Assembly (NCBI GenBank): GCA_008632985.1
Contig: QPGO01000055.1
Span: 225,100 to 289,099 of the forward strand
DNA length: 64,000 nt
DNA from: Psammoneis japonica
Lineage: Eukaryota
Direction of reading: 5' to 3'
Part shown: positions 24,833 to 62,870 of the stretch, in pieces
Layout of the letters: every line of letters starts with the position of its first letter
Numbering within the stretch: position 1 is the first letter of the stretch
Program-made: the position numbers and the translations under genes
Notes under the pieces: model-generated
What the model saw: the letters and a program-made list of their open reading frames with translations, nothing else
What the model was told of the DNA's origin: nothing
Database searches by the model: none

Positions 24833-25383
24833 ACTATGAAGGAGTAAACCGATAACTACAGCTTATTGTATCTATGTTTTAGCATTTTTACAGACGCCTT
24901 CTTTCTTCTTCTCCATGAAAATACCGCAGTACTCTGAGACGGTACAATCTGTTGTTTGCTTTTAAAAAGTAGAGATCTTTTGGGACAGTCTCGTCCCCTT
25001 TGATGGGGAGCCACCACTAAATCATCCCGTCACTAATGTATGGGCCACAAGATGAATCTCTCGGTTAAGGATTAACTGTATGAAGACGACAGGTTACTCT
25101 CTGAATACAGGGTCCACTGTCTAGCAAAGCGTGGCCTTCAACTAAGGAGAGACCTGGAAAAATTAAGCCTGGGAGGACGTGTAAAATGTGAACCAAATTC
25201 GACACCTTGATGAAAGCGTTGGAATTTGTGGAAAACTGTCACTGGCCTAGCTAGAAATAAAGATGAAACAAACCATGCATGTTCAATTTAACTTAGATGT
25301 TGTGGCAAACGTCTTTAGAGAAGCTTCTTGTGTTTCTTTTTCTTCTCAGGTGGCTGGACAGGAACTTCTTGTCAAATGACAAT
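24833..25383 (-). repeat. Duplicate of the SERRATE 3' end and downstream flank (39481-39871) with a ~172-bp insertion (24978-25149)
   Basis: Colinear from ACTATGAAGG to CAAATGACAAT in both places. Confidence 0.9.
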
Positions 25384-25790
25384 GCAGAGTTGAGGTGTTG
25401 TCCTGTGCAGCTGGCAATTTGCTGGGTTGTTTTTGAAAAGGTGTCAGCTTGCTGCTGTTTGCCCCCTGTCTTGTCACACACAAAGACAGTGTGCAGCTCC
25501 TCTGAGCACCCCTTGAGCTTGCTTTGCATCTCTGTGGTCACGCAGCTCCTCTGTGCACCCCCCTCTCCTTTTGCAGTCTCTTCTTGAGCCCTGCCCCTGT
25601 TTTTGAGCACATTTGCTGGCCTGCCACTCATCTCAAATGGCTTTGAAGCTGCTGCCAGCATGCTGGGTGCCTGGTTGCTGCCATTGTCTCCAACAGTTTC
25701 AGCATTTTGGGCACGGCTGTGTTGGAGCAACTGCACTGACTTTTTGGGCTTGGGCCTGCAAAGTCACAGATCTCACCCTGCACTGGAGAA
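25384..25790 (-). pseudogene. Copia gag N-terminal fragment, inverted relative to the adjacent element
   Basis: KGCSEELHTVFVCD...QADTFSKTTQQIASCTG resembles the start of diatom Copia gag (KG..EL....YD...QAD.F.KTT..IA.YVG). Confidence 0.55.
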
Positions 25791-25849
25791 GATCAGCACA
25801 CTCTGGTGGGTGTGGAAATGACAGCTCTGCTCTAGAGCAAGCTGGCTTG

Positions 25850-30700: not shown

Positions 30701-31261
30701 GCCTGTCCTGCAATGTCAGATGAGAATTCTGCCTGATGCATGTGGGTGAAAGATCCTTGCAAGCACTGAAAACCATGCAGAGCCAAGACATGAATGGGTT
30801 GCAGCTCAAGTCATCAAAGATTTGTCCATTGAGAACAAGCATTCTTGACGATGACAGATCAGGTTTGCAGTCTGACACATGACGACGTGTCTGCTCAAAG
30901 CTGGCCAACTGCTGGCACATGACAGAATGGCCAAAGGACCAGGGCAGGAGAACCAGCAAAGCTGAAGAGAAAGATTTGCAGATCTGCTTGCTTGAAACAA
31001 GGCATTGGAGAAAGCACAGAAGATTGGAGCCCATGGCTCAATTTTAAACACAGCTTGGAGCAAAGAGAAATCCACAGACCAGATGCTTTAGATTGCTGTC
31101 AGCTCTCATTGGATGAAGAGAGAGAGAGAGAGTGACAGGGAGAGTGAGAGAGACAGAGAGAGAGAGAGACAGCAATTGAATTTGAATGGTCTTGGTCAAC
31201 TTGTCCGTCCTCCTTTGGATCTTTTGATGCAACAGCGCCCACCATGTGAACAACAGCAGCC

Positions 31262-31313
31262 AGCAGCTGATGAAGCCACTGCCCGTGAAAGTCTCATTGT
31301 CCTGACTTCAGCC
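31262..31313 (+). ncRNA. Decayed hammerhead copy
   Basis: CTGATGAAGCCACTGCCCGTGAAAGTC...GACTTCAGCC. Confidence 0.55.
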
Positions 31314-32304
31314 AATGTTGTTGTGCCTGCTGTTCACTGAAACAGCTGGACAAATGTCTGATTGAGTGGCTCTGCCTCAGCTGCTGGTGTCATTTGTTTG
31401 TCACATTCAACGGAAATTGGCTTTGCCAATTTTGATCATTCCAGAGAGAGAGAGGCAGAGAGAGAGAGAGAGAGAGAGTGCAAAGGAACCACCCTCCCCA
31501 CCGCATGCCATGCTCTGCCATGCACTGCATGAAGCTGTGCTCCCAGAGGAGTTTAGCGCCAACCTCATCCATTGCAAGCGATTCATTGATGATGTCTTCA
31601 GCATTTGGAAAATCACCGAACCTGCCACTGACACCGCATGTTGGAGGGCCGCATTTGCCTCCAGACTGAATGACTGCAAAATCAATTGGGTCATGAGCCC
31701 GCAGTCACTCCAATCCAATTTTATGGATCTCACCATCACACTCCAAGGCTCCCACATCCACACCACTCTCTATGAGAAAGAGATGAATCTGCATCCATGC
31801 ATTCCACCACACTCAGCTCACCCACCTGGAGTGCTCACTGGCCTGATTGTGGGCACGCTCTTCCACTTTAAAAACCTTTGCTCCAATCCATCCGACGCTA
31901 AAGCAAAGATGAAATCACTCTGCCTGCGCCTTCTTGCTCAAGGCCACAAACCCAGCAAGCTGCAACCCATTTTCCAAAAAGCATGCAACCACTTTTTTTG
32001 AAACGAGACCACAGTGGAAGCACCTCCAACCAACCCACCCATCTCCCTCCACATCCCCCATCATCCAAATGACCCACCATCTGGCAAACTGCAGAAGATT
32101 TGGAAAGAAATGATGGCCTCTCCACCCTGCTCCCAACCACCAGCCAACATCTGCAACCATGCCCAGCAACGCATTGGCCTGGACCATGTGATCATCTGCT
32201 GCAGCCGATCACGCAACCTTGGCAACCTCCTTTCGCACTGCATCCTTCACGTCTCCAATGCCCTCGCAGTTTTGTCCTGCCGGGTTGCAAACAGGGAGGC
32301 CACT

Positions 32305-32335
<31 letters not shown>

Positions 32336-32444
32336 CGCGCGGCAAACTTGTGCCAAAAAATTGGTCGATCAAGTCCACCCGCCCATCCTCCACCCCTTGG
32401 ATCCTTTTGGCGCAACAACTTCAACCACTTCAACAACATCAGCC

Positions 32445-32490
32445 GGCCGCTGATGAAGCCACCACAAAAGTCTCACTCCTGACTTCAGCC
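32445..32490 (+). ncRNA. Decayed hammerhead copy (GAAA box lost)
   Basis: GGCCGCTGATGAAGCCACCACAAAAGTC...GACTTCAGCC; differs from the 35761 copy by CG->CA changes. Confidence 0.6.
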
Positions 32491-32623
32491 AATGTTGTTG
32501 TGCCTGCCATTTGTCAAAACAGTTGGACAAAGATCCAAGCTGGCAGCTCTGCCTTGGCTGCTTTTGTTCTTTGTTTGTCGCATTTGATGGAGAATTGGCT
32601 GCGCCAGTTCTGTTGTTTTTCAA

Positions 32624-33622
32624 ATGTCGAAAACTGCTGAACAGAGCCAGGAGTTTTTAGCTCTGCAGGAGGAAACCAACGACCTCATCTCTACAACCCA
32701 ACTGGCTTTCAAAAAGCAAGTTGTCCAAGCCACCAAGATTGAACTCCGAGTCATCCAAGAAGAAATTTTGGAGTCGTGCGCGAAAGCCATCCGACTCGCA
32801 ACCGAAAGTTTCGTTGTGGCCGACAGCATCAACACGCCTGTCGACACTGCAGTGGTCACCCCACTCGACCGCTGCCATGAGACGTCACTCAAACACGTCA
32901 TGGCCCGCGACCTCAATGCCTTCCTTGCCAAGCACAAGACTGCAAACACCGTCCCTGACCTGCCTCAACCGCTGGTTGCCCCTGCCGCTCGACTGACACA
33001 AGAAGAGGACCGAGCTGGCGACTCCTTGTTCCTAACGCAAGAACCCGCACCAGCACCAGCAGCTCCGCAGATCACCGCCGCACAACAGAAAGTCGAGACT
33101 GAGCTCAGCAAGATTTTCTGAGCATTTGAATGCATCTTCGTGTCTCCCTGGGAAACCCACCTCAAAACCAAAAAGAAACACGATGTCAGCCTCCAGCTGA
33201 AGAAACTGAACAAAGAACACTTTGACACAGAGGCCACCGAACACGCCAACATGGAATTTGACAATGAAGCCGCCGTCGACCCTGCCACCCTGCAAGAACT
33301 GATCCGCAAGGAAACCGAGAAAAACACCAAAAAACTCTCCCAACAGGTCAACTCGCTTGCCCAACGAATCAAGTCCATGAAGGCTCAATCAAACACCCAG
33401 AGGGGCCGCACTCACACCGCCGGCGCCTCATCACAAAAAGAAAAAGGCAAAGGTGCCTCATCGGGTCAACCGAGGAAACAACGTCCTCAGCGCGACCGCG
33501 AAGCCGACGATGCCGACAACGACACCGCCAGCGCCAACAAAAGCAATCGCCGTCGCTCCAAATCGAAACAGCCATCGAAAAAGAAGCAACAGCACTCCAG
33601 CACCAATCGGAACAGGCGCTAG
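32624..33622 (+). pseudogene. ORF1 of the Penelope-like element (helical/coiled-coil, basic C-terminus)
   Basis: Two in-frame ORFs (32624-33121, 33140-33622) separated by one TGA, likely from CGA. Confidence 0.7.
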
Positions 33623-33714
33623 AGGCGATCCACCGCCGAATCCACCGCACACACGGATTCGTCGCCGATCCATCTCGCACAACCCACCACAACGCCTGCA
33701 CCCACCTCCAACAC

Positions 33715-35633
33715 ATGCCTGCCTGGTGCCACTTCAGCAGGCCCTCTCACCTTGCCTTCCATGATTGCACCACAATGAAACAACCACCAAAAAACCTTCA
33801 ATCACCACTCGGTCTCGGCTTGAAATTGATCCCAACACCACGCTTCACCAATGACGGGAAGTCCTCCAAGATCCAAGAACACACACTCGGACGATTCAAG
33901 CAAGACCTCGACAAGCATGAGCATTTTGCCAATGCCCCAATTGACAATGCTGACGGAGATTACAACCCCCGGATGTGCCTCCGGTCCAATTGGACACCTC
34001 CCTCTTGGAAACTCACCAACATCATCAAATGCCGCTGCACCACTTTCAAGACACAAGTCACCAAGCTGCTCGTGAAACGCCATGGCAGAACCAACCTCCT
34101 GCCTCACCAACGTCGCGCCCTCACCCACCTTCACAAACAAGATGACTTCATGATGGCTCAATGCGATAAGAACTTGGGACCCGCCATCATCGAAAAGACT
34201 GAACACATCAAGATGGCATGTCGCGACCACCTTAACAACACCAACGCATGTCGTTTCCTCAACGAATTTGAAACCCGATTCTATGAACGCGGCATCAAAA
34301 ACCTCCTCAACGATTGGCTCATGACATGCAAAGCCAGCCTCACCCCCATGGAACGCAAGCACCTCAAAAACTGTCTCGAAACTAACGAAGACCCGTTCCC
34401 TGTCTTCTGCCTCACTCCAAAGGTGCACAAGCCCCCGCCGCTACGATCTCGACCAATCGTTTCCACCAGCGGCAGCCCACTCTACGGCTCAGGCATCTGG
34501 GTAGACGACAAGCTCCAGAAGATTGCTCGCCACCAACGTTCACACTTCAAGAGCTCCCTGGACCTGAAACAAGCACTCGTCCGGATGGAGTTGCCACCGA
34601 ACTGCCTCCTCTTCACATCCGACGCCGAGGCCTGCTGCTCCAACATGCCCACCAATGAAGCACTTCGATTGATCGCCGCCTGCCTCCGACGTCATGAAAA
34701 TGACTGCAACGATGTGCCAACGGACGCCCTCATCAAAGCCCTCCGAATCGTTGTGGAAAACAATGTGTTCACATTCGGAGATGCAACCTGGCACCAGCGC
34801 AATGGAACCTGCCATGGGTGCACCACCCGCCCCTCCATGCGCTGCCTCATGCTGCGCACTTCACGAAGACACACTCCTGGAGGAGTTTAGCTCCCAGCTG
34901 TTTTATTGCAAACGATTCATTGACAACGTCTTTGGCATTTGGCGCATCACCGACTCTGCCACCGACTCCGCCACCTGGGAAGCATTTGCCTCCAGGCTCA
35001 ACGACTTCGACATCACCTGGATCACGAGCGCCCGAAGCTGCCAAGTCAACTTCATGGACCTCACGATCTCACTCCAAGGCTCCCACCTGCATGCCACCCT
35101 TCATGAAAAAGAAATGAACCCACACATGCACATCCCGCCTCACTCAGCTCATCCGCCTGGAGCACTCACCGGCCTCATCATGGGCATGCTCTTTCGCTTC
35201 AAAAACCTCTGCTCCGACACTGACGATGCCAAAGCGAAAATGAGACTGCTCTGCCTTCAACTTCAAGCTCGAGGCTGCAAGCCCAGCAAACTGCAACCGC
35301 TCTTCCACAAGGCACATGACCGCATCTTTGGCAACGCCACCGGAACAATCCAAGCACCTCAGTCAAACCCCATCTTTCTGCACATTTCCCATCATCCGAA
35401 TGATCCGCCATCAAGTGAACTGCAGCAAATTTGGAAAGGTGCCATGGCCACCCCTCCCGGCTCACAACCCCTCTCAAACCTTCGAAATCACGCTCGACAA
35501 CGCATCGGCCTTGACCGCATGATTGTCTGTCATGGCCGCTCACACAACCTCGGAAACCTTCTGTCTTGTCACAAACTTTGCATCTCCCATGGCCCCCCAG
35601 TTTCGTCCTGCCGGATTGCAAACAGGGAGGCCC

Positions 35634-35666
<33 letters not shown>

Positions 35667-35671
35667 GGTGA
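33715..35671 (+). pseudogene. Penelope-type reverse transcriptase, frameshifted, no visible endonuclease
   Basis: DKNLG, PKVHK...RPIVS..GSP, NNVFTFG...Q.NG, AMGAPPAP, KRFIDN(D)VFGIW, VNFMDLTI, IPPHSAHP; frameshift near 34810. Confidence 0.88.
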
Positions 35672-35760
35672 TTTGAACCAATCAATCGAGTCAACTCGCC
35701 TGTCCTCCACCACTCGGATTTTTTAACGCAACAACCTCAACCACGTCAACAACAACAGCC

Positions 35761-35808
35761 GGCCGCTGATGAAGCCACCGCGAAAGTCTCATTCTCCTGA
35801 CTTCGGCC
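35761..35808 (+). ncRNA. Minimal type I hammerhead ribozyme motif
   Basis: GGCCG-CTGATGA-AGCCACCGC-GAAA-GTC(loop)GAC-TT-CGGCC: conserved core boxes, stem I GGCCG/CGGCC, stem III GTC/GAC. Confidence 0.75.
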
Positions 35809-35959
35809 AACGTTGTTGTGCCTGCCACCCACCGAAATAGTTGGATAAATGTCCGATTAAGCAGCTCTACCTTAGCTGCTTGCATTCTTTGTTTGTCACA
35901 TTTGACGGAGAATCGGCTGCGCCGATTCGTTCGTTCATTCGAGAGGAGAGAGAGAGAGA

Positions 35960-37800
35960 AAGTGCAAAGAGCCAAGTGAGCTTGCCAGTTGCCTCTGCAT
36001 GAGGTGGCATGAACCAGGCAGAAAAAGGATGGTGCCAATGGAGCATGTGCACAAAGAATGCATTGTGAAGTGGGTTCCAGAAGCTGAAGAATGTGTGCAT
36101 GCCAAGAGCAAGCTTGCCAGCTGCCTTTCTGTGAGGTGGAATTAACCATGCCAGAAAAGGATGACACCAACGAAGCACACACACAAAGAATTCATTGTGA
36201 AGTGGGCTCCAGAAGCTGAAAAAAGTGTGTCTGCCACAGAGCTGATGTTCTCTGCTCATGACAATGAAGAAGAGATTGTGCAAGACATCAAGGTTTGCTG
36301 TGCATGCACACACTTGACCCCAAGGAGTGCTGGCAAACCATTGGGTGCAACAATGCAAAACAATGGAGGACATGTTGCAGCATTTGTGGTCCATCACATT
36401 GTCAGGAATCAGCCAAAGCAGGGATGATGGATGAGACACCCGTCACTGGTTCAAGGGGTGGCAACCTGTGGTTGACCTCAGACAGATGAGATGTTGGCCA
36501 TTTGAGCAAGTGTTCAGAAGCGGGCTGTCCTGCCTGTGGCATGGGCGCACAAGGGGCATGTGGTTCCCTCATGAAGAGGGTCACCAATCACCCTGAAGGT
36601 GCTGCAAATCATTGTCAACTGGCTCAAGGAAGTTGGCATCATTTTTCAACCATGACATCAAGATCGCACACGCAAACTTGCAAAAGATGCACAGAATGGG
36701 TTCTTGATTTTGACTCCCAACCAAGAAAATTGGTGGCTGGACCAAAGAGCTGCTCAGTGCTCTGTCATGTCATGACATCATGAAAAAATTGTCAAGTCTG
36801 TGTTGGGTGATTTGCAATGGTTGTGCAAGGCACAACGGACTTGCTGGATGACATGGCTGATTTCTCTGATGAGGGACAGCATGCCAGTCTGTGTTGCAGC
36901 AGCCTGGAGACCCTTGAAGTTGGAGGAGCACATGTGCAAGCAAGGTGAAAACTTGTGCGGCACTCTGGAAGAAAAAATCTTGGTTGCCTCATTCCAAGTT
37001 TTTAGAGTGCCAATGAGAGCAGCAACATCTGGATCAGGGTTGCTGCAAGGACCCAGGCATGCCGGGGAAAAAGCATTTTTTGGCTGCTGATGCCACACAC
37101 ATCGATGGCTGCTCTTTTTTGAGAATTTCATCTGTTTTTGATTTTCTTTAAGTGCACTTTGATCTCACTTTTTTTGTTTGGCAGATCAACCTGTTTGATC
37201 TGTCGGCACCAGTGGGCGCCTGCGCCGCTGCTTTTTTGTTGCAGGTTTGAAGCTGCGCGGCGAACTTCCAGCCAGGCAAACCTCAGCTGACCAAGCAGCC
37301 AGGGTGAGTGTGGCAAGCAGCACAGGAGAAAGCTTTGCAAGATTTCATTTGGCAACATCAACTTGCTGGTTCAACAGGAGCTCTTCACTCTAAGGCCGAT
37401 GAGCACTTGGCCCGTGACGGAGCTCAGTTGCTCAACTCACTCGATGAGCATCTCGCTCACTCTGCCCACAGAGTGCAAGAGCATCCGCAAAGCCCGACCT
37501 TTGGCAGTTGGAGGCACACATGCCATTGCAGCCGGGTGATGCCGATCTTGGCCAACTGACATGTGCTCCTGCCACACCTGGTGTGCTGGGGGTGTGGGCT
37601 GGCTTGTTGCCGGAGTTGCAGGGTGGAAGAGCAGCAGCACTTAAAACTCAATTTTGGGTTTTTTGTTTTGGTTCAACAAGAGCTCTTTGTGCTCCAAAAG
37701 CACAAGCCAATGAAGTCTCATGCGGCGCAAGATGACTTGTCGTGAGTGGGTGGCTGGGTGGGCTGCTTCGAAAAGCTCAACTGTGCACGCATGAACAAAG
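35960..37800. repeat. Unclassified TpA-depleted degenerate element with ~130-bp internal duplication
   Basis: GCTTGCCAG...CATTGTGAAGTGGG.TCCAGAAGCTGAA repeated at ~35980 and ~36112; TA nearly absent. Confidence 0.55.
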
Positions 37801-38235
37801 ACCCACGGCACCGCAATTGATTGTTTGCGCCCTCCAATTATGACATTTTTATTCCAGTCGTAAACCAAAACAGTGTTGTGTGCAGCATGTTCTCATCGAT
37901 GCTAAAGTTGCACCTCGCAATGATTTATGATCGTCATTTAAGCCCACAGCCTTTTAATCCTGTAATGTCTCTTGTGTGGCATTTTGTCTCTACAGCACTT
38001 TACAATGTCCTTCCCCACCGCAACCACAAAACGAATAATGCATTTGTACGAACCAGCACAGACCACTCTGATGAAAAATTTACATTTAAGCCCTCCACTT
38101 GCCGGCTTAAGTCATTTATAAGCCCAGACACGTTTTCAATTAGAAAAATGACTCTGGTGAGGATGACTCTGGTGTGGCATTGTACTCCTCACAATTTTCT
38201 CAACTCGTTTTTTTTTTTGCGAGACCCCGAACAAC

Positions 38236-42168: not shown

Positions 42169-42574
42169 GCTGGAAAAAAGACAAAGTCACCAGAAGTAGC
42201 TAAGTATTGAAGTGTAGACTGCTAAGGCAGACGCGGCAGCATAACAAAAACAGCAACAGCGATAACAACACAATAACATGTAACAGCGATGCGATGTTCT
42301 GTTCGTTTTGGTTTCCCTCCATACGTTGAACTTTGTGAGGGAAAAGATCGTACGATGGACAGAAAAATACGGCTCATGGCCTGTTTCGTAGAAACACACT
42401 GCAAGAATACAGTAGGACAATTTTTGGCGCGAAACTAAATAAACATCTTCAGTGCCGACGAATCACATGACAACTCCAAAAATAAAAAGGCTGTTGACAA
42501 CCAACAACAAAAACCAAAAGAACCATGAGCAGCCGTGTCTGTGGACAAGCTGTCAACAAGGGCGGTCCATCAAA

Positions 42575-45500
42575 ATGGCAGCGTCAAATGGGACACACGG
42601 TCATTCCAAGCGCAAGGCAGAAAAGAACGAACAAGAACCGGAATGAGCGCAACGCCGTGCCGAGTGTCATCGTAAACGTCATGGTGAAGCCATTGACGTC
42701 AAGTTTGGGTGTGAACGATAGAATCACACTGCATCGACGGAACCGAGATGTCATGGATGGTTGCTCAACATGTTGCCAACGGCAAGTCAATGCCGTGCGT
42801 GTGAATTGTGAATGGCGGGAGTCTCAATCACACGCCCGTGTGTTTCTTGTGCTCTCGTCATTGTCATCCATCGACAGCAGCGTCGGGTGCTTCTTTTGGA
42901 AGTGGAGCAGACGATGGCTCTCCGGATGGTCCAGAATGTGCCAGATTGATTCATCTGCCGCAGGGAAAGAGCTCAGCATTCACATGCGAGATTGAAATGT
43001 CGGAGCACGGAGCACGTTTGTAGAGTCAAGAAATGGTCGAAATCCACATCTACATCCTGTCACTTCAGCCGGGATCGAGGACAAGTCATGTGAGACTGGG
43101 ACTCCATTGATGCTCCGTGCGTCATTGGGATGCGCGCTCAGAATCCCAACATCTGCTGCGTCCCAAGATGGGAGTCGCAAGTCGCGCGCCTTGTCGGAAT
43201 TGCAGCGCATCAACCGTCTGGCCAAAGGAGTGCATCTTAGCAAACATGATGTGTCACACAAACGCATCTTCATTTCTGTCGCTGCGAACGCAAAGTCCAA
43301 GACAGAAATCGTGGCCATGTTCAAGATGGACGGTGGCAAAGGAGAGAACAGACCTTTTGAATGAAGCGGAGGCTTCCGGCCAGAAATCTGAGTGCAGCAG
43401 CATCTCCCCCGAGAGCTGCTTTAACATGACAAGCAAGCGTTTTCCGGCATTGAGGAGGTGCTCAGCCCGTGCGGCCAATTTAATCAAGGTCCCACATTTG
43501 TGCTCCTCAGCGGCAGCAAACCGTTGCCGCACCTCTGTCGCGCTGTTCCAAGCTTCAATTCGTTCCCGATCATCACTTTCCCTTTTCCACCTGGTCCTCA
43601 TGCAACCCTTCTTTGATGATTCTGCCCGCGTTGAATTGGGAGCCAACGGCAGCACAGCTCTGCATGGAAGCATGCTTCCACATGGGCGTCATTTCCTTCC
43701 CCAAGCGCGTCTCTCATGCCAGACATTTGCAGGTGCCGGTTGGAAATCTCGATCAAGACGAAGCTGTTGCGTTGTGCGACTTTGGATTTGGTCACCAGTC
43801 GGACTGTGTCGTGGGCAAGCGCGACGCATCCTGACTTTGGAATGTCGTTCCTCTGAGGTGATTGCAAAACCGATGAAACTTCCATCCTTTCGAACCAAAA
43901 AGAAATTTGGGGCGATGATGATGAGCTGATGAGTCCGGTTGTTCGTTGTCCTGGCTCTTGTCATTGTGTTTGCACTGAAATCGATGCACACGATCTGGCA
44001 ATTGTTGCCGCCCTGACGGATGCCGCTGCGGCCGCTGCTCTTCCTTCTGCTGTGAGCCAAGCGGGCATCCCTGCGTCACCGAGCAGCGTCACCATGTTTG
44101 ATTCCACATTTGACGGAATGAATTCCATGGTTGCGGGATCTTTGGGGGACGAAATGTCAACATCCGCATCACTTCCGATTCTGCGTGCATTTGTCGGAGC
44201 TTGGCTTTACGATGCCTTCGAAGCAAACAGTCAAGTTGCAGACGACATGCTCCACAAAGTGCACTGTCTTGTGTCGACGCCAGAGCCACTGTTGAATGAC
44301 CCAACTCTCCATCGAGTGATCCAATCATTGATGAAAGCGACTTTCTTTCGACGTCTTGGTGAACTGGAAAGGCTTGTTTGTCATGTTGTTTGTGCGACAT
44401 TTCGCAAGGTGACAGTCGCTGCGAATGAGAGCAGCCTCTCCGACGCTGCGGAGCATGTCAACTTTGTCATTTCTACGATTCGAAATCTAAGCGGAGCGTC
44501 CGAGGGTGACCAAATGTTTGCAAGACTGGGTCGCATTGAGTTGCGTGCAAGCACCTGCTTCTCGCATTGTCTCTTTCTTGACGAACACAACTGCGGTGGG
44601 ATTCATCCCGAGCGCCTCCAGTTGGAGGAGGGCGAAAGCGATTGGTTGATTCCGACTGAAGATGAGGGCGGTGTGCCAATCTTCCCAACGGTGGCAAGCG
44701 GTTGGAACATGATGCATCATTTGGGGAGCGAAATTGCACAAGATTGCTTCCGAGTCATTGTTGGTCACTTTTCCAAGGATGTTCTCCGGAAGCAGATTCA
44801 GCTTGATGAGCGAGACAAAAATGCCATGTTGGAGGACGATGCTCTAAATGCATGCAAGAAGAAATTGACATCTGAGCACTTTGCTGACTGCCTGACGCGA
44901 GCTGTAAGAGATCGAGGAGGAGGGAGGCGGTCCGAAAAGTTTTCTAGAGTCACACCCGGAACGCATCTCGTGCTCACCAATCCCACATTGGAGTTCATCA
45001 AGAGTGTCATGGTTGCATTGGAGTTGGATTCCGACGTACAAAAAGGAAGCACATGCATTGAAAAAGAGCTTGCTAGCTCAGACCGGAGTTCCAATGCTGC
45101 CAAGTGGGAAGACCCTTGCGCCTCTTTCATCTTGCCCGACATGTTTTGCATGGAGTGTCATGAATGTCGTGACGTGAATCTCTGTGATCTTCCGCCACTG
45201 AATGAAGAAGAGAGAACTCAAGTGCCAAGTCTCCTGGACGGAACTTGCAATCGCTAGAGGCGTGTCTACAATGCATCTCATGTGGTCGACTCCTTCTTCG
45301 TTACAGAGACAGTGGGAATGTGAAGACTGCGGCACCCCATGCTGTTCGCAGGACATGGAACGAAGACTTGCAGATCTTTGCAATCGAAAAGCCATTTGTC
45401 ATCAGTTGCAGGACGTGCGGTGCACCAAGACTGGTGCAGTTGGGACGAGAGCCATGTCACGGCAGTCCGATTGTTCGTCTGAGTTACAGCAGGACATCCC

Positions 45501-45603
45501 TCGGGAACAGGCACTGTCACAGTTGAAGATTGTCAATTGTCTTGCTTCGTTTCATGGCTTGGAATGGTCGGCCGAAATGACGCTAGAGCTGCTCAAACTC
45601 TGA
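42575..45603 (+). pseudogene. POLE: DNA polymerase epsilon catalytic subunit, C-terminal half only, mutated
   Basis: DUF1744-like CTEIDAHDLAI, LLNDPTLHRVIQSLMK, FLDEHNCGGI; C-terminal Cys motifs WEDPCASFILPDMFCMECHECRDVNLC and WECEDC...HQLQDVRC; several frameshifts and stops; no N-terminal polymerase domain. Confidence 0.85.
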
Positions 45604-45849
45604 TGTGGTGCCGATGCACAACGAGGTGGTGATTTCAGATGAAGACACGTCTCCAATCTAGACGAGAGTCCATTTTGACAATCTCAGCACGATTCCAGAT
45701 TTTTGGAAAGTCAAGTGTGTAAATTAGGAGACTTTGGCTTTGTCCTCTCGCATCCATGTCCCTGTCTACTGGCTCGCTCGAGCGACACTCGTCGTTGCGT
45801 TTGCATCTCAACTTTCGAATCAATTTCATTGCAGAAAACACTTCTAAAC

Positions 45850-48130
45850 CAGATGATGCCCATTTTGGGTGTCTGTCTTCTCTGCCTCAATCACCATTTT
45901 CCATGAGCAATGCCCACTGTGCACTGCACTGGAGCAACTGCCTCTTAGAGTCTAGACCAATGCAGCACAAGTCACAAGAAATGTGGCAGCATCTGCGAAG
46001 TTTGAAGCAAGCGTGACTGCGAGTGTCAATTTTTTACGGGATTCGCCAACGCATTTTGCACTCAGTCACAAATGCGACGCGCGCTCTTCATCACCACATG
46101 CAATTCCGACTTTTGTTGCACTGAAACACTCTTGCTTTGCCAACCCATCTTTGTTGCGATGCCACCCCAAACATGATTGCATGAATTGCACTTGTCATCC
46201 TCTTGTTGAATCTCCTGCTGTGCCTCTTTGATGCTGGTGAGCAGAGCCAGCGCGCTGCCACCACAACATTGGCCATTTTCTCTGTGAAAGTTGTTGAACA
46301 ACTGCCAGCATTGTTTTGCTGTCAATGTGATTCTCCTCACAATTGGAGAAATTTGCAAAGCTTTTCTTGCTCTCCTCATTCTGTCTGTCATGTGCTCATT
46401 GTCCAGCTCTGGCTCGGACCTCACATTGCTGGACTGTGACATGATGAGAGCTTTTTGGTCATGCTCATCTGCGTGTCACGCACTCAGATTTCTGAGTGCA
46501 CTTTTCTGCAAAATTGTGCCATCATGCTCCCTGTTTTTTGCCAAGCCGAGGGCTTTTTATCATGGCTGTTTGTCAGAACAAACATTGGCTCTGCTGGGTG
46601 TTCTCTTTGGTGTCTGAAGAACACACCTGCACAAGGTGGAAATGATGGTGTGCTTCACAATGAAAAAGGAGGTGCAATTGCAAAATTGCCGCTTTTTCTG
46701 TTGGTGATTGTTGGCACATTTTTGCTGCCTGGCAATTTTGCTGTGGAGCTTGTGCGCAGAATTGTGCACACAAATGCCACATGGAGTTCCACCTCCTGGG
46801 GCTAGAACACATCTTTTGCAGCTTTTTCTTTGAAGCTCACAATGCTGTTGCAGCCACTCTTGCGGCAACAGCATCTGTGTGCAGACAATGCATCAGAGCT
46901 TTTCTTCATTGTCAACTTTGCTGCCCACATTGTAGTTCCTTGGCTGCTGTTCTTGAAGTGCAAATTGCTCAGCCATGGTCATGTCAGATGTGTGGTGCAC
47001 CCCCAAAGATTGCAGGGCCTTTGAAGCAGAGTTTGCTGATGCTGCCCCATCAAAGCTGCTGCGGCTGCTTGAAAATGACTCTTTGAGATCCCAAGCATGC
47101 AAGAGCCATCAGGCAAGATGTTGGGTTGTGCACTGAGATGAGTTGACAAAAAGCAAACAAGCTGTGGCTCAGAGTCATTGCTTTGCCAACAGTGCTTGCA
47201 GCAGCTTCACTCCTTGTCTCAACAAGCTGGTGCTCTCTGGAGAATTTCCCCCCCCCCAGCCAGCAGGGAAGCCAAGCACTGTGCTGCACTTGTGTTGTCC
47301 CCCCACTCAGAACAACTGGCAAGTTCAGTTGTTTGTGAGTGTTGAGAACATTTCCCACCAGGTTTGGTTGCGCAACACGACCTGCTTCAGAAAACTGTCG
47401 AGGTTGCGTTGTTGTGTGACAGATGATGGCAGCTTGAAAAAGTCTTTCAAGAGACACTCCCCCAAGCCTGCGTCAAAGTTCATCGCATGTCGGCAACAAT
47501 GAAGAAACGCTGGGAGATGGAGTGTTTCGTGAAGCTTTTGAAGCTTCCATCCGCGCCCTTGGCAGAGCTGCAGCTGTGAGCAGCCCTCTGGCTTCTGTTG
47601 TGGAAGTCATCTCCATGACTGCAGATGCTGCTGTCACCTTGAATGATGACAACTTGGTGCTCATGCCCTTCTTGAGCAAGCTTGTGACAGTGACGCGCGT
47701 TTGTCAAGCAGCCAGTGGTGAGATTGCAGAAAGAGAACACAAATTGAATCTCTGGTGGTGTGGCGCAAGTGTCTTGATGACCAAACAGATTTTGTTAAAA
47801 GTTCATTGGGTGCAAGTGCACACATGAAAGCAATTTGAAAATTGCAGGCCACAAAAAACTTGTGAGACAACAGCACAAAAACAACAGCAACCAGGAAAAA
47901 ACAGAGAAAATGTTCGTGGTGAAGATGTGCTGGTGTGTGCTGGAGAGAGGAGCCCGGAGAAAATGTGGTTGTAGTGTCTGTCATTGATGCATCATTGGCT
48001 TTCCATGCAGTTGACGAGCATGTGGGATGGGGTGAATCAAAATGTGATGGATTTGTGACCCGATTTTTTTTTGACACCCACACTCCACCGGCACATTTTT
48101 TGAAGCAATGTTTTGCATTGAAGATTTCTC
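45850..48130. repeat. Unclassified TpA-depleted degenerate sequence
   Basis: TA nearly absent, strong TG/CA excess, no recognisable protein. Confidence 0.55.
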
Positions 48131-48489
48131 AATAACACGGTGACAGAACACCCATCACATCATACAGCCAAGGTGATTCCACGAGAGCACGCTTTCTGCT
48201 TTCTGCTCACAACATCATATCCCTGCTTATTTTTCACGAGCTCTAATTTGCACACGAACCACATGCTGGTTCCTGTGCATTTACGTACATTTTATACCAG
48301 TCGCATCGTAGTGGGGTGTTGTTCGCCGGCCCTGACGAACTCTTTCTTTGACATAAAATATTTTTCACGACGGCCGGCACAGACTGCCGGCTCGGTGGAC
48401 AAGTGTTAAGTGGTACAAACACGTAGATCCTACGTCAGATTTACAGTACTCAGATTTATTCGGTACAAATCTACGCAGCATTTTGCGTA

Positions 48490-54268: not shown

Positions 54269-54799
54269 CTCTGCAATGTGTTCTGATGTGTGGCAAAAGC
54301 GTTCCTTGTTCTTTGTCTCGCTAATCGTGATGCCGAGTTTCTCTGTCGATGCATTCGGACTTTTATCTGACACGATGACATCAGAAGATGTTAAATAGTG
54401 GTAAATGAATCTTTTGCTATTTAAGTAAACATTTATCCCAAGAACATTTTCATGATTAAATACGGACGTGGCAACATAACACCACGACACACATACGTGC
54501 CGTACTGTAGTGTGTTCTGTACAGTACAATCATGGGTGAAAAATGAGTGGCTGACGGTGCTGCGCTGGCGGCGCAAGATGACACCTTCTTCCGTCGCGAA
54601 TGCCTTTGAAACTTCAACATTCTTCTTTCTTTCTTTTCGTCATCGTTGAAATCTTTGTCATTGATGCGTCACACCTTTCTTGTTCATTTTATGAGCACAT
54701 TAAAATATCTAAAGTTATGTATAAAAAACATGCCCTTTTTCGTTTGCACTTTGCACAGCTTTTCCGTTCTTTTCTCCTTTTTTTGCTTTTTTCCTTTTT

Positions 54800-55520
54800 C
54801 ATTCCTTTACCCTGCCGGCCTCCTGTCCGACCACCCCCTTGAATGCCCCGCCGACGTAGGCGTCCAACTCACACCCGGCTCTGCACCGCCTGACGCCCCA
54901 TCCACCCACCAATTTTTGGCCATGGACGTCACTGTGCCGCCCGCCACCCCGCTTCCTGCACCTGGTTTGCCCATCCCTGAAAACCCACTTGACAAGGCTC
55001 ACCTCAGCAGCGCACAGGACAAGCTCCTCGGCTGCTCTGCATCATCTGCTCACGGATCCGACATCATCGATGCCATCAACCAAGCCGGTCTCTTCCTTCT
55101 CCCTTTCATCCTCGACCACCTCGGCGGCATTGGCTGCCATTTCCATGCCTTTTTCTTCGGCACCTCCACCACAACTTCCTCTTCCACACCACCCCTTCCT
55201 CCCAAACCACCCTGGACAAGTCCTGCCTCCTTTTCCAACTCTCAGCCATCCTTTTCCGCCTGCACCAACTCACTCCTCGAACCCTCCGATCTCCTTGCCA
55301 ACTCCAACTCGGCCTGGAAACAACTCTCTCAAGACCGCTTCGGCTCTTCACACCATTTTCAGCACCATCGCTTTGGGCCTCCCCTCCCTTTGCTCTCTCC
55401 ACCCATCTTTCTGCGCATCAAGCTCTTCTCCTCCGCCACCCTGCCATTGCCAACTCCTCCTCTCTCAGCCATCTGTCCGCACTCTCGGTCCACCCTTTTT
55501 CTCCCCACGCTGCCATGAGA
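54800..55520 (+). mobile_element. 3' fragment of a non-LTR retrotransposon with restriction-like endonuclease (CRE/R2-type), degenerate
   Basis: (R)PADV...LAMDVT...K...LLPFILDHLGGIG spacing typical of RLE domains; pyrimidine-rich, TA-depleted. Confidence 0.55.
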
Positions 55521-55934
55521 CCCAGGCCTTGAGCACTGTGACTTGAAACTGGCATGGCAGGCGCACTCCGGATGAGCGCACAGACCATCACCTTGGTGAC
55601 AACACGGAGAAATTGTCAAAAACCCGCCGGAGCCGACGATGACATTGACGCAGCAGACAAGGTGTCCAAACATTCCTTGTTTCTTGGACCATTGCAACAG
55701 AAGCTCCATTGGACCCTCGTCGATGTGCCGTTGCAATCATCCATTTGGAGACGTGCAGTTTGGTGAGAAATGTTGAAACACACCGCTCCGCTTTGTCGTG
55801 ACACCATGTTGCATGCAGACGACGCATCAACTCGTCATTTGCGGATTTTCGGCACCCACTGAGTTAAAGTCCGAGTTCATTAAAAGGTGAGTAAGTTGAA
55901 AATCAAAATGGTGTTGTCAATGCATCCGAGGCTC

Positions 55935-57481: not shown

Positions 57482-58398
57482 GTGGCTTTCAGACCAATGA
57501 CGAGCCCCCTAAAGCCATTTGGATTGTGGATCTACAAGCACTGCCTTCATGATTGCTGTCAGTTTCGTCGAAAACCGGATGTAAAAGACCAACCTATCAA
57601 TGTTTGCGGGGTTATCCAATTCATTGCTGCAAAGTTCTTACTTGAAGTCAGCGGTGCTGCCGGAGCTGTTTGGGGGTCTTCTGAAGCTTTGACATTGCGT
57701 CGTTCTAGCCGTGAAATCAACAATGAGTCATGGCGTCTTGTCGCGATTGCCGTTGGCCTGGTGTTTGTCGTTCGTTTCTGGTGGCATGCCAAACACTATT
57801 TTCAACACGAACGGGATTTTCTCCCCATCAAATTGAATCATCGACGGATATGGAAACTTCCCTTTCTGCAAATCTTTTCTTCGAAATTCTTATTGGAAGT
57901 CTTCGGTGGCACTGGAGCAATTTGGGGGTGTTCAGAAGCTCTGACCTTGCGGAACGATACGAATCAACATGATTGGAGAATTGCGGCAATAGCAGTTGGT
58001 GCCACGTTTTAATCCGTTGGATCTATCAAATACTTGCCTATTGTCTTTATTTGGCTCCCTTATGGTATAATCCGACGTCGATTCTCATGACGATGGTCCG
58101 TTGTTACGAAGCCTTGGTGGTCAAATTTATTCTCGAGGTGTTGGGGGCCGCAGGAGCCGTATGGGGGTTCTCGGAAGTTGTATACCTTCGCACACCACAG
58201 ACACTTGCTCTGTGGCGGACTATAGCTGTGGTTACGGGTGTTGTCTTCATGGTTCGATGGCTTGCTCACTTGTATTTCTTTATCAAAGATGAACGAAGCT
58301 CTGCGCATACTCAGGATATGGTCCAACCACAAGATACCAAAACGGAAGAGGTTCAAGATTTGGAGATGTCGGACCTTGCCTTGAAGGAAGCATCTTAG
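57482..58398 (+). CDS. Membrane protein with three internal KFxLEVxGxxGAxWGxSE repeats; 1-bp frameshift at ~58010; 5' end uncertain
   Basis: ORFs 57482-58012 and 57973-58398 hold repeats 1-2 and 3; adding one T in ACGTTTT-AATC joins them. Confidence 0.7.
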
Positions 58399-60916
58399 TT
58401 TTCTCCTTGTTACCATTGTGGTTCGCCCGGTATGGTACGAGATGCGCTAGTGTATCTTCCTTGGTTTATTACTTGTATGTTCTGAAGTTCGCTTAGCTTT
58501 CGTTGCTTTTACTTGTCTGTTCCAGATCACATTGCAGTACCTTGGTTGTAGCGGCAATGATTGACTCTTTTGTATACACCCGATGTGAGTACACGACTAG
58601 TGTACCATGAGACCAGCATAAACAAGCTATGCAAACTCTCAAGAACGAGCGCATATCATTATTGTGCCCGTCTGATGATGCTGATCAGTAGTGTACCCGC
58701 TCCACATTTATCGTTGTTCATGAAGGAACGATTTATGACATATTTTTCGATTTGTCGCAAACGCTAGTGATTCAGCTGGCTGCTGGTGCAAAGTACGAAG
58801 TATGGAAAGTGAACCCTTTTTGGTAGTCACCAATGGTGCTTCAAGGGAGTCTTGCCACCAGTTATTTATACCCGAGTGATGATTGAAGATGCGATTTATC
58901 AACTCAAGTACTCAACAGCATGGTACCGAGGGTCATCAAGCGGCAAACTGGATGCAACAGAAACGATTCGGGTCCTTCAAAAACTGGCGCGCCTTAGAGA
59001 ATAGAATAGAGCTTTTCTTGGTTGTCAATGATCTAGGCCCTCTAGCGCCGTCTCCACAGTTCCCAGCTCCAATGATTGCTCCAGCCAGTGCGAAACGCTC
59101 CTCTTCAACATTTTTCGACTGCTAAATACCTGCGCTGATGCTATCCCGAGTTAATTTAGCTAGCCTATCTAGGAGAGAGTAGAGGTATCAAGTATCATAC
59201 CCTCTACTACTAGCTTCAGTTAAGAGCGAGGGTTTGGTCGGTGTCTTCCGTCGGTCGGTCTTCCAATTCTTTGAGCTCCTTTTGCCGATGCAGTAACACA
59301 AGATAGCGGTGTGGTACAAAACTAGAAGCGACGACATCAATGCATACAACGACACATCTACGACCGTCATCGTAGTCTATTGACGTACGTACGGATTAAC
59401 TTATACTCAAATAAAGATTGCTATGTCATACTCTGAGTCTTTCTACTTCCATTGAAAGAGTTTCAAAGAGTCAAAAGTCGCTATTGAAATCCCTCCGCTA
59501 TTTCGGCAGAACACTTGAAACTCCCTAAAAACAAGTGAACACGACGAATCCATAAGATATGCAGGCGATCAGCGCCGAAATAGTCCAACACACATCGACG
59601 ACAAGCCTTGGGGGGATACTGTAACGAATATCCCAGCATGGACCCCACCTGAAAGAAAAAGAGCAGTGTGGTACGAGAACAGAAACCATGACATCAAAGT
59701 GTGCGATGACATCGCAAGAGCTACGGCCGTCATCGTAGTCGTACGGAATAATTTACACGCCAATAAAGATTGCTACAATGTACTTTTAGTAATTCTACTT
59801 CTATTTTGAAGGTCCAAAGCATGTTTCTTAAAAAGTGAAACACGCCAATATCAGAAGTTGATAGAAATCGGTCGCGTAGGATAACGTTGCCTCAAGAGCG
59901 CCATCAGAAGATGGAGCTCAAGCTTTTCGTATCTTCAGAGTGAAAAGTGTCACTCAAAAAATGTAAAAGGGGGGACGTACTACGGAGACAACAAGAAAAC
60001 TTGCGAGTCAACCGCGTTCTAAATCAACACTCCCTACGAGTGAAGACTTACCGTGTCATGTCACTGATACGACGGAACCCCAAACCCGCGTTCCGTCAAC
60101 GGCATGATCTGCTTGGCGAGCTTTTGCTGCTTCACAGATGAACGCTGCTGTCTGTTTCAACAGCCGTGACCTGACGGGTCAAGCGAACAGGCAACTTCCT
60201 ACGCTCAAAGACACGAGAGTGACATGGACTCAAGGCCGGAGAGACGCATTCGATTTGCCCCGACCTCTGGACTTAACTGGCAACACCTACGCCACCTAGA
60301 GACAACACGCCATCAAGCAAATGAGTTGTGGAATGCCAAACAAGAGCGAGCTCTCAATCCAGAGGAAGGGCGAGCCATCCTCGGAGATTGCGGCTTCCGG
60401 CTTGGCAAACAACAAGACATCGTGCGAGACGACGATTTTGTGATCGAAACGAAAGAATTTCCGAGACATAGAGATTTTGTTTGTTTCGTGACCGTTGCTA
60501 AATTTCTCAATCACTATCATTTTGTGTGTATCTTTGTAGAATTACTACCATGATTTCGCATGTAAAAGATTCATGGGAATGCAGTGCTTTCAAAAATACT
60601 ACGGATTCCTACGTGCACTTTACTGTAACCGTCGAAAATGCAAAAGACTTGCCGAGCGACTGACTGACGAAAAAAATCTTCAAATTCGCACTCCAAATTC
60701 ACAATCCAATTCCGCCCACAACGCAACAAATTTGACATTGAAGAGCAGAGAATCAGATGACAATGAAGGTCAAAGTTGTGCACAAAGCATGGCCTTTTTT
60801 GGTTTGCGCCTTTTCGTTCTTTTCTCCTTTTTTTGATTCCTTTTTTCACCCACACGTGGAGGGCACCACTTCCACGAACGACAGCAAGAAGAAGCAGAGC
60901 ACACGAGAAAGAGCAC

Positions 60917-62870
60917 TTGGATTGTGGATCCACAATCATTGCCTCCATGATTGCTGTCAGTTTCATGGAAAACCAGATCTGAAAGACCAACCCACCAATG
61001 TTTGCGGGGGGTGTCCAATTCATTGCTGCGCAAAAGTTCTTGCTTGAAGTCTGCGGTGCTGCCGGAGCTGTTTGGGAATCTTCTGAAGCTCGGACATTGT
61101 GTCGATCCAACCATGAAATCAACAAGCACAATGAGTCGTGGTGTCTTGTCTTGATGATTGTCATTGGCCTGGTCTTTGCCACTTGGTTTTCAACATGAAC
61201 AGGATTTTCTCCCCATCAAATTGAGTCATCGATGGACGTGGAAACTTCCCTTTCTGCAAAGCTTTTCTTCAAAATTCTTGTTTGAAGTCTGTGGCAGCAC
61301 TGGAGCAATTTGGGGGTGTTCAGAAGCTCTGACCTTGTGGAATGATGCAAATCAACATGATTGGCAAATTGCTGCTGTGGCAGATGGCACCACGTTCTCA
61401 GTCCATTGGAGATCTGTCAAATGCTCGCCTGTTGTCTGCAATTGGCTCCCTTGTGGACCAATCTGATGTTGACTCTCATGACAGTGGTCCATTGTTGCAC
61501 AAAAGCTTGGCACCCAAACTTGTTCTCGAGGCATTGGGGGAAGCCCAGCAGGAGCCATGTGGGGGGGGGTTCTTGGAAGTTGCTTCTTGCTTGCCCTGTG
61601 GCAGACTGCAGCTGATCATGGCGGGTGTTGTCTTCATGGTTTGGTGGCTTTTTCACTTGCCTTTCTTTGTCAAAGAAGATGAATGGAGCTCCACACATGC
61701 TCAGGATGTGATCCAACCACAAGACACAAAAATGAAAGAGGTTCAAAATTTGAAGATGTCGAACCTTGCATGAAAGGAATCATCTCAGTTCCCCCCTTGT
61801 TTCTGTTGGTGTTTGCCTGGCATGGTGCAAGATGCATTCATGCATCTTCCTTGGTGTGTCACTTGTGCATGTTTTTCTGAAGCAGGCTTGGTTTTCGTTC
61901 CTTTCACTTGTCTTTGCCATGTGACTTTTTAGTCACATGGCTGCACCTCAGATGCAGGGGCAGTTGCTGACTTTTTTGCATGCACTTGTCATGATTGCAA
62001 GACCTGTGCACCCCAAGTCTGACATGACCAAGCTGCGCAAGCAGCTCTCAAGAATGAGCAAAGCCATGCTTGCCATGAGAACGAACAAACGTTGTTGTTG
62101 TGCACGTCTGATGAGGCTGATGAGTGCACCCGCTCAACTCACCAAGAGTCATTTTTGACACATTCAACTTTTTTTGGAAGGAATGACACTTGTGATGCAT
62201 TTGGATTTGTCATTGCTGTCATTGATTCAGCTGGCTGGTGCCAAGTTCGAGGCGCATGGAAAATGCCAAAACCTGCGGCGCTTGTGACAGACAGCACCTG
62301 AGTTCTTTTTGTTGGCAGTCGTCAACGGCACTTCAAATGAATCTTTGCAACCAGTTGCTGGCCAGCATCAGAGTGGTGATTGAAGATGTGATGCAATGAC
62401 ATGGCACTGAGGGTTGACAGGCAGCAAACTGCAGATGCGACAAAAAAGCAACTCGGCTCGGCGGTTCTTCAAAAACTGGTGTGACAGAGAACAGAGTGGA
62501 GTTTTTCTTGATTGCCAAGGATCCAGTGCCATCTCCATGGTCCCATTTCCAATGACTGTGTCAGTCAGCGAAACTCTGCTCTTCAACATTTTATGACTCG
62601 TGCTTGATGCCTGCCGCCATCCCGAGTCACTTGCACTTCTTGAGCCACCTTGTCTGGCCACCAGCTGCAGAGGAGAGCATCATGTAGAAGCACCCTCTGG
62701 AGCAGCTGGAGCAGCCACCAGCAGCTGCTGCAGTGCCCTCTTTAGCTAGCTACTCTCTACAAGAACTGCTCTCTAGCTAGAGCAGAGGCTAGCTCCAGCA
62801 GAGAGAGTGGAAACAGCGGCGAAGGTTTGGTCCGCGTCATCGATCGTCGGTCGGTGTTCGAGCTCCTTTA
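60917..62870 (+). pseudogene. Hypermutated duplicate of 57517-59285 (membrane protein gene plus downstream flank)
   Basis: Colinear alignment; TA sites of the first copy read TG/CA; frameshifts present. Confidence 0.92.

Follow-up and report, generated by a model that had tools for sequence, protein, structure and literature searches.

In the diatom Psammoneis japonica, a stretch of 64,000 nucleotides (nt) (contig QPGO01000055.1 of assembly GCA_008632985.1, positions 225,100 to 289,099 of the forward strand; hereafter the window, with positions counted from its first letter) contains chromosomal domains in which the dinucleotide 5'-TA-3' (TpA) has been replaced almost throughout by TG or CA. 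The best explanation, to which we assign a probability of roughly 0.78, is a regionally targeted, strand-symmetric A:T>G:C hypermutation at TpA, which acts domain-wide and independently of homology. The signature has a polarity, regional limits, strand symmetry and a bias in flanking context, as detailed below for a duplicated host gene and for seven TA-poor islands.

A duplicated gene with one converted copy

The fate of individual TA steps can be followed in a direct repeat on the + strand, comprising copy 1 (57516..59285) and copy 2 (60914..62870). Local alignment pairs 57516–59156 with 60914–62632 at 80% identity and yields 1251 matches, 306 mismatches (217 transitions and 89 transversions) and 246 gap columns. 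An earlier note on this DNA had claimed near-complete conversion of TA in the second copy, based on about 25 sites that had been checked. Copy 1 has 68 aligned TA steps, and copy 2 has retained not a single one of them: 29 are TG, 27 are CA and 12 are changed otherwise, with CG as the product in a single case (1/68). The substitutions quoted in the note are all visible in the alignment, including the change of the stop codon TAG to CAG at 58396. Loss of CpG was said to be partial, which agrees with 16 of 71 CG steps being retained, while 27 changed to TG and 19 to CA. For comparison, TG is retained in 108 of 137 and CA in 70 of 88 cases, and the remaining 14 dinucleotide types, when pooled, in 965 of 1373 (70%; TA retention versus these types, Fisher p = 6e-35).

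Counting transitions per base leads to the same picture. Inside TA, 63 of 143 bases have undergone a transition, while 57 out of 706 have done so among the A/T bases elsewhere (p = 3e-23, odds ratio 9), and the corresponding numbers are 47 of 152 inside CG and 50 of 556 for other G/C bases. The low values for the other A/T and the other G/C bases indicate that there is no general excess of A>G and that the excess is specific to TpA; changes of AT and TT are likewise not elevated. Thus, the possibility considered in the earlier note that conversion is no higher than at other A/T sites does not apply, as the bases of TA change ~5-fold as often.

The two copies also differ in composition. The observed/expected ratio of TA is 0.71 in copy 1, but 0.09 in copy 2 when determined over 60917–62870, and 0.01 in 1-kb windows at its core. 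TpA/ApT drops from 0.73 to 0.10, and (CpA+TpG)/(ApC+GpT) rises from 1.22, which is ordinary for the window, to 1.99. The TA value of copy 1 supports the earlier claim that only one copy of the pair is affected, and its ordinary composition (TA 0.71, TpA/ApT 0.73) therefore provides no sign that this copy has undergone repeat-induced point mutation (RIP). Contigs from a DNA sequencing run, designated X1 (depth ~58–65), which possibly is the window's own source sample, match copy 1 (57920–59387) and copy 2 (60731–61326 and 61308–63000) with 0 differences, and the pattern is therefore no assembly quirk. At position 57629, where the window has G, the contigs of X1 and of a second set, X2, have A at full depth, which stems either from a mistake in the assembly or from variation between strains.

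The product of copy 1, a protein with three repeats from a family that has no name, is made up jointly by the open reading frames (ORFs) 57497–58012 (171 aa) and 58087–58398 and has 17 homologues with up to 52% identity. Relative to these homologues, one T is missing in a T run near 58005–58010, which splits the frame into two ORFs. The X1 and X2 contigs agree with the window here, without any indel between them and the window. Copy 1 may represent a young pseudogene or one allele. One X2 contig joins 57459–58433 directly to 58525–59184 and thereby skips a stretch of 91 nt (58434..58524, + strand; GT..AG), which is probably an intron that follows the stop codon. Since it is a GT..AG stretch that is skipped, X2 looks like a transcript assembly and, judging from this contig, copy 1 looks transcribed and spliced. 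X2 contigs leave 60579–62822 uncovered, which has no bearing on expression of copy 2.

Copy 2 still holds the stretch homologous to the 91-nt intron, in which the splice donor GTA now reads GCA. It is therefore a DNA-level duplicate rather than a retrocopy. Apart from the loss of all 68 aligned TA steps, it carries many indels and its frame is broken. Its terminal ~130 nt (62743–62870), which lie outside of the converted region, have retained TA. A short stretch upstream of copy 2 (60770..60850, + strand) is homologous to 54720–54800, and the TA steps of this partner are present as TG or CA here. Purifying selection on the protein does not explain why copy 2 alone is converted, because copy 1, whose frame may be disabled, has nevertheless kept its TA steps, also in the part that follows the stop codon.

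TA-poor islands and their borders

Sliding windows and TA spacing delimit seven TA-poor islands, which together comprise 28,838 of the 64,000 nt (45% of the window). Within them, the observed/expected ratio of TA is 0.03–0.09 as compared to 0.58 outside, and the ratios of TG and CA have increased to 1.4–1.9. Although one TA is expected every 24 nt, the longest run devoid of TA extends over 2493 nt. The island holding copy 2 (60611..62742; islands carry no strand assignment) has 5 TA in 2132 nt, with observed/expected ratios of 0.03 for TA, 0.40 for CG, 1.65 for TG and 1.70 for CA. Its edges do not coincide with those of the duplication: the island starts at ~60611–60627, that is ~300 nt ahead of the duplicated segment, and ends at ~62742, ~130 nt before the end of the duplicate. 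The remaining islands are found at 5909..7944 (TA 0.07, CG 0.22), 8546..10570, 13915..17151 (TA 0.06, CG 0.41), 25290..37849 (the largest with 12.6 kb and 42 TA; TA 0.06), 42484..48162 (TA 0.09, CG 0.69) and 54723..55891 (TA 0.07, CG 0.77). These six islands are without any TA-normal partner in the window, and word matching in a purine/pyrimidine alphabet for partners hidden by transitions revealed nothing beyond the blastn matches.

TA-normal copy 1 and converted copy 2 are separated by 3.4 kb, and between them lies a high-copy dispersed repeat (59270..60605, no strand assigned) that is spared. Its summed contig depth is 400–9000 as compared to ~58 in the flanks, with many loose ends at 60523–60605, and still its observed/expected ratio of TA is 0.6–0.9 and its CpG content is normal. 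Since this high-copy repeat is spared and the island edges are off the duplication edges, the target is set by position and not by homology or copy number. The repeat occurs in many variant contigs, also among those of X2, and contains internal direct repeats of 150 nt (59300–59453 and 59657–59805).

In a second pair of repeats, both members are converted. A retroelement in the largest island (31488..35935, + strand), which is TA-poor and near normal in CpG, is flanked by direct repeats (31488–32617 and 34822–35935; 76% identical), both of which are free of TA. Between them, there are 24 adjacent CA<->TG double mismatches, as compared to 5 for the next commonest type, which is exactly what is expected if an ancestral TA shared by the two repeats was converted in place and independently in each of them. 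Hence, the contrast that the earlier note had drawn between a one-sided gene/duplicate pair and RIP stands only in part. The restriction to copy 2 is real, but one-sidedness is not a rule, as both retroelement repeats were converted independently, and the process is not specific to the pair. Nor is the pair the unit of conversion: the converted tract (60611–62742) is offset from the duplicate, six islands have no partner and a repeat between the copies is spared. Together with the doubly converted repeats, these observations identify the chromosomal domain rather than the duplicate as the unit. The retroelement ORF (33268–34887) belongs to a large family with 4554 matches at E <= 0.001 and has reverse-transcriptase-like motifs, as seen in the alignment. 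Pfam searches with 8 of its 150 listed relatives gave no match; the ORF may resemble Penelope-like elements.

The left border of the largest island (25187..25316, + strand) falls within another duplicate. It corresponds to 39668–39800, the 3' end of an Ars2-like gene, as part of a longer match between 24832–25383 and 39480–39871 (85–86% identical), in which the island-side copy has an insertion of 170 nt. In the border block 6 of 12 TA steps are converted, all of them to TG (contexts ATAT three times, CTAT, CTAG and GTAG), while the unconverted steps are in the contexts CTAG (2), ATAA, TTAA and TTAG (2). None of the 13 TA steps of the outer block 24832–24963 became TG or CA. Conversion is thus graded over ~150 nt. 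The pair of copies 1 and 2 with its spared repeat and this border-straddling duplicate argue for targeting of domains, not of homology or copy number. Two island ORFs (27400–28674 and 26464–27339) were considered as derivatives of the Ars2-like gene and rejected, as the comparison showed no relation.

The islands at 5909..7944 and 8546..10570 are part of a tandem duplicate of 2.6 kb (5947–8579 and 8574–11205; 99.5% identical), each unit of which consists of a TA-poor island and ~600 nt of TA-normal DNA. The units differ by 11 substitutions, among them 4–5 CpG transitions and one TA (7644) that corresponds to CA (10270) at the island edge. The latter difference is a weak hint (n = 1) at recent activity.

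Island 42484..48162 contains a 3' fragment of the gene for the catalytic subunit of DNA polymerase epsilon (43484..45600, + strand), comprising DUF1744 and two zinc-finger domains in three reading frames. ORF 43857–45257, which represents the C-terminal part of the polymerase, is located in a TA-poor stretch, and no N-terminal polymerase domains were found nearby. Among 120 listed long homologues, 7 carry an organism label, and 7/7 of these labels point to diatoms (Thalassiosira, Cyclotella, Fragilariopsis, Cylindrotheca twice, a genome of the Bacillariaceae and a Joint Genome Institute (JGI) code taken as Pseudo-nitzschia).

Islands end ~200–300 nt away from the starts of neighbouring ORFs (42484/42186, 62742/63050 and 54723/54529; island end and ORF start, respectively). 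The intact genes of the window, which have long ORFs and few introns, encode two HSF-type factors, a DUF6824 protein, TYW2, the Ars2-like protein and Sec1. The genes for the HSF-type DNA-binding proteins (17420–17887 and 53825–54529) and the DUF6824 gene (23912–24754) are situated between islands that end a few hundred nt off. A family of short repeats with members at 15319–16536, 55941–56324 and 46611–46794 (inverted) is 80–92% identical and common to three different TA-poor islands. TA-normal, ORF-rich DNA has internal tandem repeats at 38542–39075 (66-nt register at 38.6–39.1 kb) and 13055–13348 (~90 nt at 13.1–13.3 kb), which are probably repetitive coding sequence. In the largest island there are long ORFs of up to 424 aa (e.g. 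27403–28674 on the – strand and 25607–26569 on the + strand), which are rich in Cys and His and without a family match. Long ORFs arise in TA-free DNA because TGA is the only stop codon left there.

Strand choice, chemistry and polarity

In the duplicated pair, the choice of strand is even, with 29 TG versus 27 CA products that are distributed in 33 runs (29 expected). Such an even and site-independent choice fits many single events rather than processive bursts on one strand; strand-coordinated bursts were considered and the runs test was negative. In two other islands, represented by the polymerase epsilon fragment and the retroelement, Tyr changed to His and Cys in similar numbers. The flanking bases matter as well. 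Among the residual TA steps of the islands (n = 87), counted no closer than 150 nt to an island edge and leaving aside the second tandem copy, 49 are in the context YTAR and 2 in RTAY (Y, pyrimidine; R, purine), as compared to 275 and 442, respectively, outside the islands (n = 1446; chi-square p = 1e-17), a bias drawn from survivors pooled across islands of different age. ATAT and ATAC/GTAT are completely absent among the residual steps. RTAY is thus the best and YTAR the worst substrate, with which the border block 25187–25316 agrees.

We envisage a process at the DNA level which, within chromosomal domains, would turn TpA into TpG or CpA, that is A:T>G:C at the A of 5'-TA-3', with either strand being targeted independently at each site. 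In copy 2, it would have gone near to completion. As it would follow the domain, it would convert a duplicated host gene, a polymerase gene fragment, a retroelement and unrecognizable DNA alike, and conversion would cease ~200–300 nt short of neighbouring ORF starts. As to the chemistry, our favoured guess is that a TadA/ADAT-like enzyme deaminates adenine in DNA, giving rise to hypoxanthine. The targeting cue may be small RNA or silent chromatin, and the process may serve genome defence. The alignments reveal the loss of Tyr codons, of TAA/TAG stop codons and of 5' splice sites of the GTA type, and genes would therefore be inactivated permanently; by the same logic, TATA and AATAAA-type signals would be erased too.

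Alternatively, the chemistry could start from thymine. In this scenario, TET/JBP-type oxidation of T in TpA would generate 5-hydroxymethyl- or 5-formyluracil, which mispairs with G and causes T>C, leaving behind the same regional signature. From the sequence alone, A>G on one strand is indistinguishable from T>C on the other, and RTAY, the preferred context, is identical to its reverse complement. Dinoflagellate DNA contains 5-hydroxymethyluracil with a preference for TpA and TpC, and 5-formyluracil gives rise to T>C mutations. However, an effect on TpC is missing here, as TC is retained in 80 of 109 cases, similar to other dinucleotides, and we know of no evidence for such an oxidized base in diatoms. 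Product choice in mixed contexts of the pair, counted by hand (Y-TA-Y 18, R-TA-R 11), is not decisive either way. We regard thymine oxidation as unlikely.

TA loss is accompanied by CpG decay in most islands. In copy 2, 46 of 71 CG steps became TG or CA, and the observed/expected ratio of CG is 0.19–0.77 in islands versus 0.98 outside. This coincidence could point to error-prone patch repair, in which methylated DNA repeatedly undergoes mismatch or excision repair, e.g. after deamination of 5-methylcytosine, with the gap being filled by a polymerase-eta-like enzyme that introduces mutations into A:T pairs of WA motifs (W, A or T), as in phase II of antibody hypermutation. Polymerase eta indeed prefers WA>WG. 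However, AA is unaffected in the pair (79 of 96 retained, 6 changed to AG), and strand bias and clustering are both lacking. Moreover, the large island 25290–37849 is very poor in CpG at 25.3–31.5 kb and 36–37.5 kb, but near normal at 32–35.5 kb, and in the latter stretch as well as at 42.5–45 kb, where CpG is near normal too, TA is equally gone. TA loss and CpG decay are therefore separable, and CpG decay is a second, independent overlay, the strength of which varies between islands from pronounced to almost nil, its cause probably being deamination of 5-methylcytosine. Patch repair as the source of TA loss is accordingly improbable.

Four independent lines of sequence comparison identify TA as the ancestral state. 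When 16 of the 17 homologues were aligned to the copy 1 protein, these outgroups agreed at conserved positions with copy 1 rather than copy 2 (G 16:0, R 16:0, R 15:0, R 14:0, Y 11:0, V 10:0 and L 9:0). The direction from TA to TG/CA claimed in the earlier note is thereby borne out, and its proviso that an outgroup might reveal TG/CA as ancestral has turned out in favour of the TA-bearing copy at conserved sites. Tyr is encoded by TAY only, and conversion to CAY or TGY yields His or Cys. In the polymerase epsilon fragment, none of 8 conserved Tyr columns is kept (3 Cys, 3 His, 1 Phe and 1 Ser; judged from 8 of the 38 homologues of the first search). A single Tyr remains in its 466 aa, where homologues have 9–22, and the same holds relative to its closest relative (56% identity). 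Likewise, the retroelement ORF has kept 0 of 9 conserved Tyr columns (4 Cys, 3 His, 1 Met and 1 Ser; 9 of 150 listed relatives), whereas conserved Gly (9/9), Asn (6/6), Lys (6/6) and Trp (5/5) columns are all kept. At 75 metagenomic loci of the retroelement family, the observed/expected ratio of TA is 0.43–0.94 and none (0/75) is TA-free, albeit in a search that favours intact copies, since Tyr is part of one of its two patterns and the top-scoring tblastn matches were selected.

A reversed polarity, in which copy 2 is nearer to the ancestor and copy 1 gained TA through RIP-like C>T changes at CpA/TpG, could invoke three variable sites at which outgroups carry the residue of copy 2 (57614, 7 Val; 57848, 10 Thr; 57959, 6 Ala). 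We read these exceptions as homoplasy at such an evolutionary distance. At sites conserved in at least 10 of 16 homologues, the outgroups match copy 1, with 57848 as the sole counter-example. TpA/ApT and (CpA+TpG)/(ApC+GpT) are ordinary in copy 1 (0.73 and 1.22) and deviate in copy 2 (0.10 and 1.99), the frame-breaking indels are in copy 2, and the replacement of Tyr by His or Cys relative to the respective families recurs in two unrelated islands. Reversal is therefore very improbable. We give as little credence to the idea that the islands represent DNA of foreign origin or special composition in which selection disfavours TA, either by restriction-like avoidance or for RNA stability, rather than mutated host DNA. 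It is true that most island sequence is without recognizable origin, and that Pfam searches over ~119 island ORFs found matches in 4 only, all of them on the polymerase epsilon fragment. However, copy 2 and the border block at 25.2 kb have TA-normal partners in the window, the polymerase epsilon fragment, a sequence of diatom type, no longer has its conserved Tyr, and the relatives of the retroelement are TA-normal. Selection on function is also unlikely in the islands because their reading frames are broken. A sequencing or assembly artefact, e.g. systematic miscalls at a modified base in TpA, is hardly credible: no point in its support was found, X1 contigs at single-copy depth (~58) agree with copy 2 in every letter, the changes lead to linked pairs of either TG or CA, with only 1 CG in 68, and conversion is accompanied by indels, CpG decay and consistent amino-acid changes.

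Several points weigh against targeted hypermutation at TpA as formulated at the outset, in addition to the three variable sites and the pooling of islands of different age in the context analysis. The evidence consists of an end state, in which no mutation was seen occurring. Background transitions in the pair amount to ~8.5% per site (~0.085 per dinucleotide per lineage), and loss of 68 out of 68 TA steps requires at least ~3.1 hits per TA, which as an indirect bound corresponds to roughly 35-fold the background per dinucleotide, or more, if confined to one lineage. Given that the background divergence of the pair is ~14%, a sustained rate of ~35-fold the background or more would suffice and a burst is unnecessary. 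There are also 14 TG<->CA double mismatches in the pair, which possibly indicate that a few TA or CG steps were lost in copy 1 too. Finally, the 6/6 outcome of TG at the 25.2-kb border (p = 0.03, + strand) is odd with strand independence.

Relation to known systems and implications

Locally aimed hypermutation of TpA has been reported once so far, in a 2026 preprint on a chlorarachniophyte (bioRxiv 10.64898/2026.01.13.699255). Of 302 nuclear mutations that Bigelowiella natans acquired in mutation-accumulation lines, 231 were located in two integrated silent viral regions, and all but one of the mutations in the viral inserts were A>G or T>C, those all on TpA (Mettrop et al., bioRxiv 10.64898/2026.01.13.699255). 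The B. natans genome has 124 clusters, each of at least three 1-kb windows, that are TpA-depleted and rich in CpA+TpG, and depletion is partial, with a Rho TpA of 0.45 in the viral insert. This footprint is enriched in reverse-transcriptase and transposase sequences and includes host-like domains, while the main target is transcriptionally silent; a homologue of ADAT2 was proposed as the enzyme (bioRxiv 10.64898/2026.01.13.699255).

The window shares with B. natans that only TpA>TpG and TpA>CpA occur, on both strands and confined to regions beside normally mutating DNA, and that depletion of TpA with gain of CpA+TpG is the footprint. The settings are different: B. natans belongs to the Rhizaria and carries integrated giant-virus and virophage DNA, whereas here a diatom has seven islands with TA at 0.03–0.09 that make up 45% of the window. 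Foreign or mobile DNA, as targeted in B. natans, may or may not be the typical target here: the islands contain one retroelement, but also a host gene duplicate and the polymerase epsilon fragment, and most island DNA lacks an identification. The rate was measured directly in the B. natans lines and found to be orders of magnitude above background, whereas it is the end state that is available here. A host gene duplicate with an unconverted partner, the overlay of CpG decay, the preference for RTAY over YTAR and the independence of homology and copy number go beyond what the part of the preprint considered here describes. In a literature search that did not extend to subscription journals, neither depletion nor hypermutation of TpA was found to be described for diatoms.

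The process resembles RIP in that dense, dinucleotide-specific transitions permanently inactivate duplicated and mobile DNA, and RIP can also spread somewhat past the repeat. In Neurospora and other ascomycetes, RIP causes C>T at CpA, thereby gaining TpA at the expense of CpA/TpG; it is triggered by homology and normally mutates both partners. Here, the direction is the opposite, as copy 2 has a TpA/ApT of 0.10 and a (CpA+TpG)/(ApC+GpT) of 1.99 while TA is ancestral according to the outgroups. Moreover, copy 1 is untouched (TA 0.71), island edges are off the homology edges and the neighbouring high-copy repeat is unconverted. CpG decay as known from methylated repeats, where 5-methylcytosine deaminates spontaneously, has its counterpart in the CG>TG/CA changes of copy 2 (46/71) and of most islands. 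However, TA loss is beyond its reach, and CpG decay is weaker, more variable and nearly absent in two fully TA-free stretches.

Adenosine deaminases that act next to a 5' U or T include TadA and ADAT2–ADAT3, acting on U33–A34 of tRNA, the TadA-derived adenine base editors, which act on DNA, and ADAR, which hyperedits repeat RNA. The changes described here resemble those made by such enzymes in being A>G with a 5' T, and a pyrimidine following the A, which bacterial TadA encounters in its UAC context, would be consistent with the bias in favour of TAY. In contrast, hyperediting of RNA by ADAR followed by retroposition would affect one strand and leave intron-less copies, whereas the strands are hit at 29:27 and copy 2 keeps the intron stretch.

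The locus represents a natural before-and-after experiment, provided by copy 1 versus copy 2 and by a second duplicate astride an island border, and the flank preference is a first handle for testing candidate enzymes. There is also a practical consequence, as gene finders will probably call long false ORFs in TA-free DNA; 'proteins' free of Tyr allow such regions to be spotted quickly. The occurrence of the footprint in saturated form in a diatom genome suggests that the process is widespread among marine protists and able to reshape much intergenic DNA. We tentatively raise the possibility, which is at present rather doubtful, that diatoms have a chromatin- or RNA-guided defence that edits DNA adenines and would erase every TpA from silent or non-self domains, including duplicated host genes, and that this is the same system as in Bigelowiella and hence an ancient pathway throughout the SAR (stramenopile, alveolate and Rhizaria) lineage. 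If true, it would be the functional mirror image of fungal RIP, with RTAY as its motif and with sharp domain borders, and its enzyme and targeting signal could be found in a genetically tractable group.

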